A stretch of 64,000 bases of DNA from IMG/VR virus record IMGVR_UViG_3300037502_003155, positions 12,926 through 76,925 of that record, one strand, 5' to 3'. Positions within the stretch are counted from its first letter, which is position 1, and each line of letters begins with the position of its first letter. A model generated the notes under the pieces. The model saw nothing but the letters and a program-made list of their open reading frames with translations, ran no database searches and was not told the DNA's origin. Shown here one piece after another: positions 4,973 to 15,347 of the stretch. A program made the position numbers and the translations under genes. This stretch comes from a virus.

Positions 4973-5551
4973 CTAGGCTAGTGCGGCGATCATCTCGGCT
5001 TTGGATAGGTGGCGACCTTGCCCGTGGGCATTCCGCCATTTCACCCCAGCGGCCTGGCAACGGCAGCGCAATTCGGCACTGGTCACGGGCTTGGGTGCCT
5101 CCACCTTGACCACAGCGACGGCCACGGGTTGGCTGATGGTAGCGGCCATGTCGGGGTAGTGCTGGTTGGTGGCAGGGCTGAAGGGGTCAGATTCGACCAT
5201 TTTCCCGGCGTCGGGAATATGGTCGGCGGGGAGGCAGGCGGCAACCTCCAGCCGTTCGGGCAAGCTCGGCAGGTCGTCCTCGAGGGCGATGGCGGGAAGC
5301 TGCTGGGCAGCGATGAACCATTCCCAGGCTGCGCGGGTCAGCATCCCGGCCCCGATGGCGTAGCACATCACCACGCCGATGATGGTGCCGATGTCCTCGT
5401 AGCGGCGGACGGCTTCAGGGCCGATAAAGGTGTTGACGTACCAGTGATAGGTGGCCTCGGTCTTGGCGGTGGCGACTTCAGAGAACTGATACCAGCGCTC
5501 GGCGGCGAGGGCGATATTGTCGATAGCGTTAATAGGTGCGGCGTAAGTCAT
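4973..5551 (-). CDS. hypothetical protein with a TM segment and a C-terminal Rho-N/HeH-like helix pair
   Basis: GGAG RBS before MTYAAP; C-terminal SAELRCRCQAAG...HLSKAEMIAAL. Confidence 0.6.
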   Translation of the reverse strand: MTYAAPINAIDNIALAAERWYQFSEVATAKTEATYHWYVNTFIGPEAVRRYEDIGTIIGVVMCYAIGAGMLTRAAWEWFIAAQQLPAIALEDDLPSLPERLEVAACLPADHIPDAGKMVESDPFSPATNQHYPDMAATISQPVAVAVVKVEAPKPVTSAELRCRCQAAGVKWRNAHGQGRHLSKAEMIAALA

Positions 5552-5749
5552 CGATTTCAAAGCTCCAAAATCTTGTGGTGAGGTGGCCCCTGTAGCGGTG
5601 GGGCCTACCTTATTGGCGTGGCTGCTGCTATTCCAGCCTGTCACCCATGCAACGCTTGGGGGGCGTTCCCGCTGCTGTTCCGGGACTGTCACCCTATTTG
5701 TATTCCGCCGGGGGGCGGCTGGTAGGCCGTGTTGCCTGCCGATGTAATA

Positions 5750-5779
5750 ACAATAACTGCCCCCCGGTTATCCTGTCAA
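5750..5779 (-). promoter_or_regulatory. sigma70-type early promoter
   Basis: TTGACA-N18-TATTGT on the minus strand. Confidence 0.55.
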
Positions 5780-5964
5780 CCCTTTTCTGAAATTTTTTTC
5801 AAAACCAGAACTTCGCCCTTGGCAATAGCGTCCAAAAGCTTGCTAACGCTAGGGCGTGAATTGTAGGTATAGCCTAGGGTCTGGGCGATATTGGCAAGGG
5901 CCAAAGGCGTATCGGTATCTACTCTGGGCTTAATGGTTGTGCGATTTTCTTTGCGGCGGGGCAT
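5776..5964 (-). CDS. small DNA-binding protein (RHH-like)
   Basis: 62 aa, basic N-terminal strand followed by two helices (SVSKLLDAIAKG). Confidence 0.55.
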   Translation of the reverse strand: MPRRKENRTTIKPRVDTDTPLALANIAQTLGYTYNSRPSVSKLLDAIAKGEVLVLKKISEKG

Positions 5965-6013
5965 GGCGAGAATACGTTAAACTGTACCCCAGTTATAGCA
6001 GAGAGGACGCCCA

Positions 6014-6166
6014 ATGAGAACCCGTAAGGAACGCGCCACTGATCTCGCCACCATGCAGCAGACGGTGGCAGAAGCCCAGGCCCAAGCCGATGCTATGCAG
6101 CGCAAGATGGAGCAGCAGCTACGAGAATTGGGGGACGCCAAGGCCATGATCGAGGAGTGCTGGTAG
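6014..6166 (+). CDS. small coiled-coil protein (50 aa, not in the ORF track)
   Basis: GAGAGGA RBS; MRTRKERATDLATMQQ...IEECW; followed by a terminator hairpin at about 6185-6223. Confidence 0.55.
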   Translation: MRTRKERATDLATMQQTVAEAQAQADAMQRKMEQQLRELGDAKAMIEECW

Positions 6167-6372
6167 CCTACGCATAGCTCCAACAACAAAACCCCCGGCA
6201 CCACACGGCACCGGGGGTTTGTGTTAGTCATCTTCCAGAGTCTCCCAAGACAGCTTCTCAGCGTAAGCTTTGACTTGGGCCACGATACGCTTTGGGACTC
6301 GCATCGTGGTGAGAAGTTCACCTGGGGGGTAGGGTGAGTGGCCTCGCCCACCCCGGCTGTAGTCGCGGCCCT

Positions 6373-6678
6373 TTATGCGGGCACTTTTGGGATTTCTACC
6401 ACAGTCCCCACGGGGGGGGCGGTGCGGCTGTGGCGGGAAGTGACGACAGCACCGCCTAGACGAGGGTCGAAGGTGCCGACCCATTGAGTGGTGTGGTAAT
6501 GATGGGCAAGGGCGGCGTAGAGCCACACAGGCCCACGTCCAGAGATGACTACGCCTTTGGTGCCGTCCACGTCGGGCGGGTTGAGGGTAGCAAGGTCTGC
6601 GGGTTCGCAGACCCCGCCGGGGATCTCGAACTCAAGCAGGGTCGCCCCTGCGAAGGGAGTGGTAGTGAACTGAATCAT
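6373..6678 (-). CDS. csx3: CRISPR-associated ring nuclease Csx3/Crn3 homologue
   Basis: 101 aa; family signature GVVISGRGPVWLYAALAHHYH...WVGTFDPRLGGAVVTSRH; GGAGG RBS. Confidence 0.88.
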   Translation of the reverse strand: MIQFTTTPFAGATLLEFEIPGGVCEPADLATLNPPDVDGTKGVVISGRGPVWLYAALAHHYHTTQWVGTFDPRLGGAVVTSRHSRTAPPVGTVVEIPKVPA

Positions 6679-6740
6679 GCTGCCTCCTTGGGCTGGTTGG
6701 GTGTGCAGGGCTTTACCTGCGGGGCTTGAGAGCGGTGACA

Positions 6741-7208
6741 TTAACGACGCTTGACGGGCCGGGGCTTGCCACTGGGGAGCGACTTGAACTCAGCCCCGAC
6801 CCATTGGCCGAGTTCGTCCAGCACCCACTGAGGGATCGGGATAGGTTCCCCTTTGTAGGCCGCTTTTGTGCGACCCAAGGCAGGGTTCCGGCGGCGGATA
6901 AATCCGCGCTCCAGAGTTTTTTGGGTTTTGTCCTCAATGACCGCGACCATTTTCGCGGGTACGCGAAAATCTTTGTAAACATTTTCGTCAATAGACCATC
7001 TTTTCATGTCAATAAACAACCCGTCTTTGATTACCCGGGTTTTTACTTGGTCTACTTCAACCAGATCGGTTTTTTTGCCGATCCGGATAAAAGTTTCCCA
7101 GTCCTCTCGACTAGGAACGACGGTGCCCTCAGCAAAGAACCATTCTGGGCCCCCATCCGAGGTTCCAGGCATAAACCCCCGGTAATGTCTCAACGCATCA
7201 GTTGCCAT
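6741..7208 (-). CDS. hypothetical protein (candidate anti-defence)
   Basis: 155 aa ORF co-oriented with csx3 and bounded by repeats. Confidence 0.65.
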   Translation of the reverse strand: MATDALRHYRGFMPGTSDGGPEWFFAEGTVVPSREDWETFIRIGKKTDLVEVDQVKTRVIKDGLFIDMKRWSIDENVYKDFRVPAKMVAVIEDKTQKTLERGFIRRRNPALGRTKAAYKGEPIPIPQWVLDELGQWVGAEFKSLPSGKPRPVKRR

Positions 7209-7225
7209 AGTCTTATCGCCGCCCC

Positions 7226-7854
7226 TCTTTTCGGCGCACCCTGCCCACCATGCAGGTTTCTTGGGGATAGTGTTGGTGGAATGCAGGGCTTTACCTGCTG
7301 AGCTTGAGATCGAGTGTGGCTATTCGTCCAAGGCGTCCAAGGCGTCCAAGACAATGTTAAACATTGCCTCAAACCGATACCACTCGGGCTCGGTCGTTGA
7401 TTCGAAAGAAACGACATCTCCCGAATCGGAATCGACAAACCTCAGCAGCCAGTCCATCCACTCTGGGATAACCTGCCCGTAAGCAGGGTATCCGTGAATG
7501 GGAGCAACGGGGACGGAAACCCCGAAGACGGATTTGATGTAGCGGCGGTAGAAGTCTGGCCGCACATCGCAATGCGGGCCGTCTCCACCTCCGTAGCTGC
7601 GAGCTATGCCGAGAGCGGCATAGCCTACAATCACCTCCATCTCGTCGATGGAGTCACACCCTTCGTACTGAAGGATGTGAACTTCCTCCCATTGGGAGGT
7701 GGAAGGGTCTTCCATGTAAGAGCGTTCGGTGCGCTCTTCAGAGACCACGCTGAAATACTGGTCTTGGCTCAAACGACTGTTGTACGCAGGCATAATCTTT
7801 TCGGCGTACCCTGCCCACCATGCAGGTTTACTTGGGGATTTAGTTGGTGGAATG
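7226..7854. repeat. ~58-bp intergenic direct repeat (7226-7283 and 7796-7854)
   Basis: tcttttcggcgYaccctgcccaccatgcaggttt(a)cttggggat....gttggtggaatg in both copies. A second 17-bp repeat, tgcagggctttacctgc, lies at 6704-6720 and 7282-7298. Confidence 0.9.
7320..7793 (-). CDS. acidic hypothetical protein (candidate anti-defence)
   Basis: 157 aa, D/E-rich; first gene after the early promoter. Confidence 0.65.
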   Translation of the reverse strand: MPAYNSRLSQDQYFSVVSEERTERSYMEDPSTSQWEEVHILQYEGCDSIDEMEVIVGYAALGIARSYGGGDGPHCDVRPDFYRRYIKSVFGVSVPVAPIHGYPAYGQVIPEWMDWLLRFVDSDSGDVVSFESTTEPEWYRFEAMFNIVLDALDALDE

Positions 7855-8038
7855 GGGCACCGTGCAACTGCTGCACTTTTGGCCGCTTGCTAGGGTTGTC
7901 GTGGCTGCTCCACCGTGCCCGGTTGCAGTAGCGCCCCTCTCGTGAACGCTAGCGGGACTCGAACCCACCATTTAACTTGCCTAGGGCTGACATCCTGAGA
8001 ACCCTGCCTTGCGGGCTGGTTCAGTGCCCATGAACATA

Positions 8039-8067
8039 ACTGTATACGGTTTGTTTAATGTTGTCAA
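8039..8067 (-). promoter_or_regulatory. sigma70-type early promoter for the csx3 island
   Basis: TTGACA-N17-TACAGT on the minus strand. Confidence 0.65.
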
Positions 8068-8074
8068 CGCCTTT

Positions 8075-9826
8075 TTATAAATCCAGTAGCAGGTGCCCCA
8101 CATCATTTGGAATCTGGTATCGTGCTGGGCTACCCCCATCGCTCACCACAAAGCCGTCATCGGTGGCCATGCGGTCGAGGGTGAAGGCTACCTGGTCAGT
8201 GGTCAGTTTTTTGAGAGCTGTGGATTGTTGCCGGATCTCTGAGGCCAGCATGGGGGCGTTGGCCTTGTGCTCCAGGATGGCAAGAATGAGTTGCTTAACC
8301 TCGCTCATGGTTTCGGGGGTTACGGCCACCGCAACCTCAGGGAAAGTCCCCAATGTGTTGAGCGTGGGAATCTCAAGCTCTGGCGTTTGCCCCACGAACA
8401 ACCGTGACGCATGAACGGCAAACGTGCGGTTCACTGCTGACTGACGACGTAGGGCAGTGTGATAGGTTTGAGCCGATTCGCGCTCAGACTTTGCGCGGAT
8501 CAGTGCATCGTCCGTGAGCACGTTGTCGATGGTTTTGGCGTTGCCCTCCATGGGCTTGCCTTCGTGGTCTTTGGTCGTTTTGCAGCCCAAAGCTAGGGTG
8601 CAAATGTTGTCGCGCAATCCGCTGGATAACGTGTTTTTGCCAGGGGAAAAGCTGATGTCTCCGAGCAAATGGCTTTGGTTTACCAAAATCATGTGCATAT
8701 TTAGCTCACGGCCCGCCACGATAAGATCAAGAAAAACGGTGGTGATTAGCTTTTGCTCATCCTTCTCAAGCCAAGCCAGCTTGCCTTTGGCTAACATCCA
8801 CTCATCGAAGACAAACCAGAGATGTTTTCCCACGGGTTGCCCTTGATTCAGCCGTCCTTTGCGCTTCGTTAGCTCAGTATTGATCTGGTTAAACAATTTC
8901 AGGTAATCGTTATCCGACTGCATAAACCGAGCGGCGGGCTTAAGGTTTGCCCAGTCAGATCCTTTAGGGTCAGCAATGGTGATAAGGTGCCCCTGGTTGG
9001 CCAGATGGGTACAGAGATTCCGCAGCACCCAGGTTTTTCCGCTACCTGTAGTAGCAGCGATCAGAATGTGTATTTGGCTAGCCAGGTAGGGAACAAAGGC
9101 TTGTGGCAATTCGGCGGGTTGCCAGCCAGTAGATTCAGCTTCCATCGGGGGCGCTACAGCCTCTATGTGTTCCCACGGCTCCGTCACCATGTCAGGGGTG
9201 CCCTGGGGGGCTTCTATGGGCTGGGTCGGCTGGTCAGTTCCTTCAACAGCCGAGGATGATTCTTGAGGCGAGGATGATTCTTGAGGCTTCTGAAGCCATT
9301 GGAACGGGCCTAGTTCAGTCGGCACGCCCTTAGGCTCAATCCCCCAATCCTCTAGCAGTTGCTCTAGCCGTTGAATGGGCAGCATGACGTTAGTGGGGTC
9401 GCTAGGGTCAATCCAGCAATAGACCTCTCCATATTTGGCCAAGGGGTGCTTGTCCTTGGGGCTAAACTCAATCCAGCCTGTATGGCCGAGCATCCCTTCA
9501 ATGGCTCGGTTGATGGCGGCTACGTCGTAGCGTTTTTTAAGTTGTGCGCGAAGATCGTTGATGCTGGGATGCTTTGGGGTAGAGGCGCTCAAGATTTCCT
9601 GCAATTCATCCCCCTCTTCCTTAGGGCGAAACTTTTTGATTTCGTCCAAAAAATAAGCCCCCATACCAACAACCGCCGCAACACTGGCAATGGGCAGTGT
9701 TGCGGCGGTTGTATATAAAACAACGATACCCCCACCCACAACGATTGCCCTTTCTAGCAGCCCGCCGCTAGCTGGTTTAATGAGCGCGGGCTGTTTCTTT
9801 TTCGGGCTGATGGTGGTCAGGGTCAT
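8075..9826 (-). CDS. membrane-anchored FtsK/SpoIIIE/TraB-like DNA translocase ATPase
   Basis: N-terminal TM hairpin; Walker A ATTGSGKT; Walker B WFVFDE; GRELNMHMILVNQ motif; C-terminal winged-helix-like domain. Confidence 0.75.
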   Translation of the reverse strand: MTLTTISPKKKQPALIKPASGGLLERAIVVGGGIVVLYTTAATLPIASVAAVVGMGAYFLDEIKKFRPKEEGDELQEILSASTPKHPSINDLRAQLKKRYDVAAINRAIEGMLGHTGWIEFSPKDKHPLAKYGEVYCWIDPSDPTNVMLPIQRLEQLLEDWGIEPKGVPTELGPFQWLQKPQESSSPQESSSAVEGTDQPTQPIEAPQGTPDMVTEPWEHIEAVAPPMEAESTGWQPAELPQAFVPYLASQIHILIAATTGSGKTWVLRNLCTHLANQGHLITIADPKGSDWANLKPAARFMQSDNDYLKLFNQINTELTKRKGRLNQGQPVGKHLWFVFDEWMLAKGKLAWLEKDEQKLITTVFLDLIVAGRELNMHMILVNQSHLLGDISFSPGKNTLSSGLRDNICTLALGCKTTKDHEGKPMEGNAKTIDNVLTDDALIRAKSERESAQTYHTALRRQSAVNRTFAVHASRLFVGQTPELEIPTLNTLGTFPEVAVAVTPETMSEVKQLILAILEHKANAPMLASEIRQQSTALKKLTTDQVAFTLDRMATDDGFVVSDGGSPARYQIPNDVGHLLLDL

Positions 9827-13711: not shown

Positions 13712-14284
13712 CTAGTCTTCTAGCACTCTCTTAACCTTGCGGGCTACGTCAGAGCAAATGCCCTCACACTGATCGGCCCCCCAAGCCTGGGTATCTTCAA
13801 TCGTTCGGCCCGACTTAATCTCTGCCAACGTTAGGGCGGCTAACTCCAGTTCATCAAGGCCGTCCCTAGTTGACTTTACCTTGCGCGATGCCTGAAGCTG
13901 CTTGGCTGTCTGCCCAAATAGCCCCACGTTCACCGCATTGGTGCATCGGGCATATTCATGGGGGTAAGCAACGCCGTGATTCTTGAGCGTGTCAGTAAGC
14001 TGGTATCGCGCCACCTTGCCGTCAAGGCGTGCCTTAATCTGCTTGTCTGACCAACCTAAGCGACTGTATTTGCGAACGGCATGGTCAAGTGCTTTATCTG
14101 GGTCGGCAATGATGCCAGCAGCCCACCGCCGAAACTCAGCCCCACGCTTACCAGGGCACAGCATGAGGATTTGGTACATCCCCTCTTCATTGGTAACGGG
14201 GGTTTCCCGTTGCCCACGACCGGGGAATTTGAAGTCCGAACAAAAGTCGCTAACCTCAGGATTCTGCTTTTCAAGTCGCTGCCG
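13712..14284 (-). pseudogene. 5'-truncated phage antirepressor-like (BRO/KilA-type) gene
   Basis: The frame reads RQRLEKQNPEV...KFPGRGQRETPV...QILMLCPGKRGAEFRRWAA with no start codon upstream; it abuts the integrase end. Confidence 0.6.
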
Positions 14285-15347
14285 CTACATGAGGGATGCT
14301 AGCCCCCTGCTCCAGCAGGTGACTGCCTAGGCTATGCCGTGCGGAGTAGGGCACTCGGTCAACGCCCGCCGCTTTGCAGATCCGTTTCCATGTGCGTTGG
14401 GAAAAATCGCAATCATTGATCGGGTTGCCCCGTGGGGTTAAAAATATCAAGTCGTCCGGCTTAGCCCCGGCGGGCCTCCGGGCGTTCAGCATCGCCACCA
14501 TGTCAGCGTGCAGTGTCAGTGTCCTCACCTTGTTGGTCTTGGTGCCCTTTCTTTGCCGTGCCCAGCCAGCCGCCTTGCCATCGGGGGCTCGGGCGAGGGC
14601 TTCAGCAATGGTTGCCACACCGCGCTCTAGGTCAATGTGTCGCCACCTCAAGCCCGCTGCCTCGCTAACTCGCAGCCCCAAGTAGAACAGGGTCATTACA
14701 AAATCATGGTAGGGCTCGGTGCAGGGATCAGCCTTGGTGGCATCCAAGAAAGCCCGGATCTGCCCAGCAGTTAGCGGTGCCCGTTTTGGGTTGGGTTGGC
14801 GGCTGGCTTTGATGCGTGGCACGTCTGTCCACGGGTTGGACTCTAAGTGCCCCCGCTGCATGGCCCATTGACCAAAACTTCGCAGCCTCGATAGATTCTG
14901 GTTCGCCACAATGCCCGACTGAGAGGCCCGTAGGCGTTCGAGAAAGGCCGCTGCCTCTTTGGTGGTCACAATGTCCTTTCCCCATCGCTGTAGATGCCCT
15001 AGCAGTGGCTTATAGCTAGCGGTAATGGTTTGGCCGCTGGTGCCGTCCTCCCTGCGATGCTCGATAAATTGCTCGAACAGATCGGCGGTGGTTAGCCGGG
15101 GTGGCTCTGGCTCCGGCTCTGGCTGGGGTTTGTATTTGGCTAGCGTTGGGTCAAACTGCTCACGGGCAATATCAGCCTGAATCTCGGTGGCTAGTATCTC
15201 GGCACGATGGCGGTTGAGGGGGCTATCGGGTAGGCCAATGGCAAGCTGATACGGTCGCCCCTGGTGTGTCCACCTCAGGCGTAGCATTTCATTTCGCGTT
15301 GACACTGACACTGCCCCCCGTTTGTTACGGCGGTTTTTCCTGGGCAT
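14271..15347 (-). pseudogene. int: tyrosine integrase with arm-binding domain, C-terminally truncated
   Basis: LRLRW...G...QLAIGLPD arm domain; GLRVSE and YSARH motifs; the ORF stops before the LG[H/N]...Y catalytic segment. Confidence 0.8.

Follow-up and report, generated by a model that had tools for sequence, protein, structure and literature searches.

Viral ring nucleases provide phages with an off-switch for the cyclic-oligoadenylate arm of type III CRISPR. The locus described here raises the question whether a gene of the Crn3/Csx3 family, situated in a phage genome, encodes a further switch of this kind. The window, i.e., the whole stretch of 64,000 nucleotides that was analysed, comprises bases 12926-76925 of an IMG/VR virus record of 76,925 bp, which is about 91% complete according to CheckV. 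A sequence-only reading of the window had placed a stand-alone Csx3/Crn3 gene in a phage early island and had proposed that a host off-switch was captured and repurposed as an anti-CRISPR. By analogy to the characterised proteins of the family, we assign a probability of roughly 0.65 to the reading that the phage protein would destroy cyclic tetra-adenylate (cA4) and thereby act against type III CRISPR.

The csx3 gene and its product

The gene runs on the minus strand from the ATG at 6678-6676 to the TAA at 6375-6373, and a Shine-Dalgarno motif is situated directly ahead of it:

6373..6678 (stop codon included), minus strand: csx3/crn3 coding sequence, 101 aa (P0001), identified by curated HMMs, PDB matches and an AlphaFold2 model
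6683..6687, minus strand: Shine-Dalgarno motif GGAGG, 4 nt ahead of the csx3 ATG, read from the sequence

A longer reading of 122 aa, starting 21 codons earlier at the ATG at 6741, is unlikely. The ATG at 6678 is preferred because the Shine-Dalgarno motif serves this position and because the methionine of the motif MI.F is the start in all 29 aligned relatives; the same two observations bear out the coordinates originally given for the gene.

Concerning family membership, the HMM search that the sequence-only reading had proposed was run, and both curated cut-offs were passed: Pfam PF09620 (Cas_csx3) matches P0001 with an E-value of 6.5e-27 and 93.6 bits (cut-off 21), and the NCBIfam equivalog TIGR02579 ("CRISPR-associated ring nuclease Crn3/Csx3") with 87.8 bits (cut-off 55.4). 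Four PADLOC models of stand-alone Csx3 match as well (E 1e-27 to 2e-26), as do, through the common Csx3 domain, the PADLOC models PDLC01045 and PDLC01059 of the Csx3-AAA and AAA-Csx3 fusions. The closest solved proteins are five distinct PDB sequences of Archaeoglobus fulgidus Csx3 (E around 1e-18). The protein is thus a member of the Crn3/Csx3 family, with a match far beyond chance. That the viral ring nuclease AcrIII-1 belongs to a different family, as had been stated, is in accordance with the Pfam scan of P0001 up to an E-value of 1, which yielded only Cas_csx3 and a sub-threshold match to AHSA1, and no match to DUF1874.

Among phage resources, PHROGs holds no family for Csx3, and the viral structure library BFVD contains nothing resembling the Csx3 model (best E 0.16). 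Neither 25 kb of the window (megablast) nor the Csx3 protein (tblastn) found a match among 50,697 GenBank phage records, a set that may exclude near relatives.

The Csx3 signature is intact, as had been recognised from the letters alone: SGRGPVWL occupies residues 46-53, followed by H59..H62 and by DPRLG at residues 71-75. The closest characterised proteins of the family are those of A. fulgidus (AfCsx3, AF_1864; structures 3WZG, 3WZI, 6VJG and 6YUD) and Methanosarcina mazei (MmCsx3), which are likewise around 100 aa long. In AfCsx3, cA4 is contacted by I22, S44, G45, R46, I49 and R71, catalysis depends on D69 and H60, and the absolutely conserved histidines are H57, H60 and H80 (PMC7371418). 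After correction of the PDB chain numbering, which is offset by six relative to native AfCsx3 (five separate anchors being concordant), the phage residues V23, S46, G47, R48, V51, H59, H62, D71, R73 and H83 correspond to AfCsx3 I22, S44, G45, R46, I49, H57, H60, D69, R71 and H80. All functional residues are therefore retained, the only changes being two conservative exchanges of isoleucine for valine at main-chain contacts. Among 28 close relatives, the "D69 face" (S46, G47, R48, V51, D71, R73) is invariant, and on the "H60 face" H83 is invariant and H59 and H62 are at least 90% conserved. Judged by its residues, the phage protein would be a catalytically intact Crn3/Csx3, with activity predicted.

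The AlphaFold2 model, computed from an alignment of 30 sequences, reaches a mean pLDDT of 93 and a pTM of 0.84. The 13 best Foldseek matches to it in the PDB are all AfCsx3 chains (TM 0.84-0.87, rmsd 1.1-2.6 A), with a TM of 0.86 and an rmsd of 1.1 A both to the cA4 complex 6YUD and to 3WZG. The phage protein, as modelled, has the Csx3 fold, and its identity to AfCsx3 in the structural alignments amounts to 41-44%.

The initial description of AfCsx3 was that of an RNA deadenylase, and its crystals contained an RNA tetraloop (PMC7371418); the phage protein might accordingly also act on RNA by 3' deadenylation and alter host or phage transcripts, leaving cA4 untouched. This reading is highly improbable, since the RNA complex was later explained as occupancy of the cA4 site, with ring-nuclease activity as the function (PMC7371418), and since the locus shows nothing that points to RNA metabolism.

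One close relative (P0007, 84% identity) deviates at the histidine face: it reads ALARHYY where the others have ALAHHYH, by which both histidines equivalent to AfCsx3 H57 and H60 are lost.

Phage genome and probable host

The record is the genome of an uncultured, temperate tailed phage. To the right of csx3, an operon with a membrane FtsK/HerA-like ATPase is situated, and further to the right follow a T5orf172 protein, a tyrosine integrase (14271-15347), from which we take the phage to be temperate, and a class II ribonucleotide reductase. Around 30 kb of tail and head genes on the same side include the major capsid protein, the prohead protease and the portal; the large terminase, a DNA methylase and a tail fibre with an S74 chaperone domain are found there as well. 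To the left of csx3 lie a RecT-like annealing protein and a DnaQ-like exonuclease, and the 13 kb of the record beyond the left end of the window encode a primase-helicase, a methyltransferase and a dCTP deaminase. The csx3 gene and the genes next to it belong to a leftward gene block on the side of the integrase.

The statement that the window is free of cas genes and CRISPR arrays holds for the full 76,925-bp record, in which searches found no RAMP gene, no Cas10 of the Csm1 or Cmr2 type, no Cas1 and no CRISPR-like tandem array. The Rfam search of 5500-8300 gave no match and no CRISPR repeat in the leader, and the tRNA search of the record found no tRNA.

The type III CRISPR-Cas association that otherwise characterises the family is thus absent from the 76.9-kb record, a feature that concerns context, not protein homology. 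It is the sole defining feature that the phage copy lacks, and its absence is the point of the finding: AfCsx3 and MmCsx3 are cellular proteins to compare with, whereas the phage copy is virus-encoded in a record devoid of type III CRISPR genes and lies outside any cas locus, as is typical of the AcrIII-1/AcrIII-2 class. The sequence-only reading had itself named a position within a host cas locus as what would speak against it; the gene is surrounded by phage genes, and cas genes are absent. That csx3 is host DNA after all, either a fragment of a cas locus or part of a mis-binned contig, is suggested by the fact that most Csx3 genes are cellular and cas-linked and that IMG/VR records can be chimeric. 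However, phage genes for replication, recombination and structure stand on both flanks in one contig, and independent metagenome contigs (e.g., L049) join csx3 to the same phage genes, such that this explanation is hardly credible.

The host is probably a filamentous cyanobacterium, as judged from sequence relatives. All named relatives of the large terminase (TerL) are cyanobacterial, namely from a MAG (63% identity), from Leptolyngbyaceae CCMR0082 (48%) and from a Stenomitos MAG (43%); the one in CCMR0082 is probably part of a prophage, because it is situated on a contig of 2.0 Mb. For the major capsid protein, relatives were found in only 5 of 401 cyanobacterial genomes, with at most 36% identity. 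Genomes of Leptolyngbyaceae (Phormidesmis) and Nodosilinea contain csx3 loci linked to RAMP genes (L038, L041), which indicates that the likely host group has type III systems that employ Crn3 and therefore probably signal through cA4.

Concerning short palindromes, CGATCG is absent from the 76,925-bp record and GGATCC occurs three times, with around 22 copies of each expected from base composition; GATC, GGCC and GANTC are near expectation. This depletion suggests avoidance of specific host restriction sites and fits restriction avoidance in cyanobacteria.

The island around csx3 and its variation in lake phages

Three minus-strand genes, in the order orf157, orf155 and csx3, form an island with the following features:

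8039..8067, minus strand: sigma-70-like promoter match TTGACA-17-TACAGT at the head of the island (consensus match; 2 found, 1.2 expected)
7808..7829, minus strand: Box B copy 2, ahead of the orf157 start codon (22-nt repeat; 2 exact copies, 0 expected)
7320..7793, minus strand: orf157, first cassette gene, an ORFan with no Pfam, PHROGs or PADLOC match
7282..7308, minus strand: Box A copy 2, just downstream of orf157 (27-nt repeat; 2 copies in the window, 0 expected)
7238..7259, minus strand: Box B copy 1, ahead of the orf155 start codon (as copy 2)
6741..7208, minus strand: orf155, cassette gene directly upstream of csx3, an ORFan with no Pfam, PHROGs or PADLOC match
6704..6730, minus strand: Box A copy 1, just downstream of orf155 (as copy 2)
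6189..6220, minus strand: intrinsic terminator closing the island, a 14-bp GC-rich stem with U run (folding energy)
6386..8089, no strand: block absent in related lake phages, containing promoter, orf157, orf155 and csx3 (contigs in two runs)

The terminator has a folding energy of -32.3 kcal/mol (z -5.6), which none of 200 shuffled sequences equalled. Concerning the promoter, the sequence-only reading was right in that a sigma-70-like match exists ahead of the island; however, it lies 1.4 kb upstream of csx3 with two genes in between, and the number of such matches is close to that expected by chance, such that the match does not substantiate early expression. For orf155, only 6 relatives exist among 5.8 billion protein clusters, which gives an alignment of 7 sequences, too shallow for a structure model, and the Atlas provided no usable lead. 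Nine alternative cassette genes of related phages likewise belong to no family of Pfam, PHROGs or PADLOC.

Within the window, boxes A and B are confined to the island, where they mark the joints of single-gene cassettes; an exact search of IMG/VR for box B gave no match. Possible roles of the boxes are those of recombination joints or of binding sites for proteins. Their interpretation as stable RNA hairpins was rejected (z 0.3 to -1.1). In T4-like phages, promoter-stem-loop cassettes are known, and morons and cassette regions generally consist of small accessory genes with their own promoter and short repeats that are swapped between relatives. Unlike the promoter-stem-loop cassettes of T4-like phages, boxes A and B lack significant RNA structure and occur only in this island.

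Three small elements accompany the island. Between the promoter-like site and orf157, the leader at 7935-7990 (minus strand) reads GGTGGGTTCGAGTCCCGC and then TAGCGTTCA, which resembles the T-arm and 3' acceptor strand of a tRNA; a complete tRNA was not detected by ARAGORN, and 6.5 kb separate the leader from the integrase. The sequence could represent a tRNA-like element or what remains of an attachment core. Downstream of csx3 and ahead of the terminator, a putative ORF of 26 codons (MRVPKRIVAQVKAYAEKL...) at 6260-6340 (minus strand) persists in the island-less variant. Just past the terminator, an ORF of 62 aa (5776-5964, minus strand) with a helix-turn-helix-like middle and no family match is followed by a second sigma-70-like site at 5779-5750; judged by its sequence, this ORF could be a small regulator with a putative Aca-like role.

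The phage is widespread: 45-62% of the sampled words of the region are present in runs from around 16 lake or freshwater studies. No RNA run was among those listed, which carries no information on expression. Four short contigs of one JGI metagenome (L046-L049) are pieces of related phages by blastn, in which csx3 is kept and its neighbours change. Identity over csx3 and its downstream flank is 88% in L046 and 96% in L047. In L047 and L049, other genes stand upstream of csx3, the change-over being located at the repeat, and in L049 the FtsK-like gene is followed by two other cassettes and then by csx3. When the csx3 gene of the window was compared pairwise with those of L046, L048 and L049, dN/dS was 0.14-0.22 at a dS of 0.42-0.54, which indicates purifying selection.

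The contigs of four lake or freshwater runs were furthermore compared with positions 5700-9800. In two runs from two studies, contigs pass from 6385 to 8090 across 26 unrelated letters, with 34 letters on the shorter side, such that the whole block is missing; in another contig, 7241 is joined to 7825 and orf157 alone is missing. A joint was treated as weak if its shorter side comprised fewer than 31 letters (6735-7216; 7279-7855), and island stretches that remained uncovered by contigs in single runs were not counted as evidence. Since the island is missing in some related phages, it is dispensable. The insertion point of the block follows the stop of the FtsK-like gene and precedes the terminator of that upstream operon. 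The island has, in short, the layout of a moron, both optional and swappable.

Such a layout in a temperate phage could also mean that the island is transcribed from the prophage and that Csx3 keeps the cA4 level of the lysogen low, by which dormancy would not be triggered when type III spacers of the host match leaky transcripts of the prophage; the chemistry would be the same, the timing and the beneficiary different. The temperate lifestyle, the position of the island in the leftward gene block on the integrase side, the host-type promoter match of the island itself, the insertion ahead of the operon's terminator, and the presence or absence of the island as a block are in line with this reading, whereas the promoter match is not above chance. 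We consider it the main alternative but unlikely, also in view of a second virus described below.

Some csx3 copies of related phages deviate from that of the window. A sister-type, phage-linked Csx3 with around 60% identity (L050:934-1236, P0040) stands behind the same leader and box-B elements and has FAPSEGG in place of FDPRLGG, by which the equivalents of D69 and R71 are lost and SGRGP and the histidines are kept; from its residues, it may be a binding-only (sponge-like) or an inactive variant. Directly downstream of it, a pentapeptide-repeat protein of 153 aa is encoded (L050:1513-1974; Pfam E 5e-58), of a class that is abundant in cyanobacteria and of which some members mimic DNA. L048 (1131-1478) exhibits a tandem duplication of around 10 residues at the N-terminus of Csx3, and in L047 (943-1215, DNA 96% identical) the C-terminal tail is altered and truncated, consistent with a frameshift; each of the two is either an assembly error or a real variant.

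Viral copies of Csx3 and their proposed function

Of 143 relatives of similar length, the window protein shares one clade (SH-aLRT 92) with the 32 that are most similar to it (58-90% identity). This clade of 33 members is known only from metagenomes, with none from the 185,579 species genomes scanned, and is characterised by an invariant Cys24 and a C-terminal segment APP.G. The best genomic relative (63% identity) comes from a Gloeobacteraceae MAG, where its contig of 4 kb contains no RAMP gene. In around 24 of 41 genomic loci, placed by hand, csx3 and RAMP genes share a contig within about 10 kb, and the loci with no placed RAMP gene are mostly on short contigs or at contig ends; this agrees with the literature, in which Crn3 of cells is described as linked to cas genes.

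Two alignment-based scans of IMG/VR revealed six other records with a solo csx3 of around 95-105 aa, namely L002 (= L087), L003, L088, L089, L090 and L091; a scan with the single sequence had found nothing, so that alignments were needed. The six records are 23-273 kb long with a GC content of 30-56%, two have direct terminal repeats, CheckV completeness reaches up to 100%, and none contains a RAMP gene (Terminase_6C proved to be the wrong terminase family for these records). All of their Csx3 proteins keep the motifs SGR (TGR in L003), H..H, DPR and H. In the 90-kb record L002, the solo csx3 is situated between a DnaG-type primase and RecA-like and ribonucleotide reductase genes, with sigma factor and SbcCD-like genes nearby and no integrase in the stretch examined, which speaks against a role restricted to lysogens.

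The phylogeny that the sequence-only reading had asked for supports the clade of the window protein, but is otherwise poorly resolved, as the tree comprises only 99 columns. In this tree, the seven viral copies occupy seven places; a single clade of all seven has a log-likelihood lower by 71.8 and narrowly escapes rejection (AU test, p 0.072). Several independent captures of csx3 by viruses are likely on these sequences, and the distribution of the gene suggests a transfer from host to phage.

Concerning function, a role against type III CRISPR is probably the most economical one by analogy. It is favoured because the chemistry appears intact, the context is viral, the gene is under purifying selection, it recurs in unrelated viruses, and MmCsx3 provides a precedent: in E. 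coli, this protein partially relieved Csx1-mediated immunity, with a longer incubation needed than for AcrIII-1, i.e., with slower action in vivo (PMC7371418). Csx3 is cooperative and requires stacking of dimers (PMC7371418). Following A. fulgidus Csx3, dimers of the phage protein would form a head-to-tail stack that encloses cA4: one dimer would bind the ring through its SGR/DPR face, the neighbouring dimer would provide the Mn2+ site through its three-histidine face, and the ring would be cut into linear di-adenylates. When the type III complex of the host recognises phage RNA and Cas10 makes cA4, phage Csx3 would remove it before CARF effectors (e.g., Csx1 or Csm6) are activated, and the phage or the lysogen would be spared dormancy or death. 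Viral ring nucleases of other folds are anti-CRISPRs (PMC12751052, PMC12830947); a published dispute, known to us as cited in PMC12751052, concerns the question whether natively expressed AcrIII-1 is effective as an anti-CRISPR at all.

Crn4 and Csx15 cleave several cyclic oligoadenylate species and CBASS signals (PMC12830947; bioRxiv 10.64898/2026.10.26.761840), and the phage protein might likewise intercept a cyclic oligonucleotide outside CRISPR (linked to CBASS or SAVED) or accept broader substrates than cA4. This is very unlikely, as characterised Crn3 is described as specific for cA4 and the residues that contact cA4 are conserved here.

Compared with AcrIII-1 (DUF1874), the viral counterpart of Crn2, phage Csx3 is likewise small and virus-encoded, and degradation of cA4, known for AcrIII-1, is predicted for it. 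AcrIII-1 and Crn2 are the viral and cellular versions of one family, to which viral and cellular Csx3 form a parallel. Despite this similarity, there are clear differences: AcrIII-1 has an unrelated fold and mechanism, is metal-independent and holds cA4 in a single dimer, whereas Csx3 is Mn-dependent and holds cA4 between two dimers; furthermore, AcrIII-1 is thought to have passed from virus to cell, and the reverse is suggested for phage Csx3. AcrIII-2 (viral SAVED) and phage Crn4b, Csx16 and Csx20 are likewise solo ring-nuclease genes of phages, proposed or shown to be anti-CRISPRs (PMC12751052, PMC12830947, PMC12409355). In AcrIII-2, cA4 is also sandwiched between subunits, whereas the protein family differs from Csx3. 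Fusions of Csx3 and AAA occur in type III loci of cyanobacteria and Bacteroidota and are frequent in the phylum to which the host probably belongs (L024, L035); unlike these, phage Csx3 has no ATPase domain and groups with the short stand-alone forms.

In a survey of 28,114 phage genomes with profiles of Crn1-3, Csx15, Csx16 and Csx20, AcrIII-1 was found in 36, Csx20 in 4 and Csx16 in 2 genomes; Crn3 was searched for and is not among the ring nucleases reported (PMC12409355). According to the AcrIII-2 study, a single viral ring nuclease was known before it (PMC12751052). The literature searched contained no report of a viral Crn3 and none on Csx3 together with cyanophages. The protein thus extends the Crn3/Csx3 family by a new viral member, and its mechanism is not new. 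We tentatively go further, with slightly more doubt than belief, and propose that Csx3/Crn3 may represent a third, unpublished viral fold against type III CRISPR, taken up by unrelated phages and possibly repeatedly, and that csx3 may mark a counter-defence island of this freshwater cyanophage, of which the ORFans (orf155, orf157 and the alternative cassettes of L047-L049) may be new anti-defence genes.

The established viral folds are AcrIII-1 and AcrIII-2 only, and phage homologues of Crn4b, Csx16 and Csx20 are reported. If the proposed function is true, Crn3, the metal-dependent ring nuclease, would have been recruited by viruses as a third fold, and counter-defence against type III systems would extend to phages of cyanobacteria, the probable host phylum, which has type III loci with Crn3. 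The cassette genes beside csx3 are candidates for further counter-defence functions, and the coexistence of phages with and without the island in the same lakes amounts to a natural experiment in which the costs of csx3 can be weighed against its benefits.
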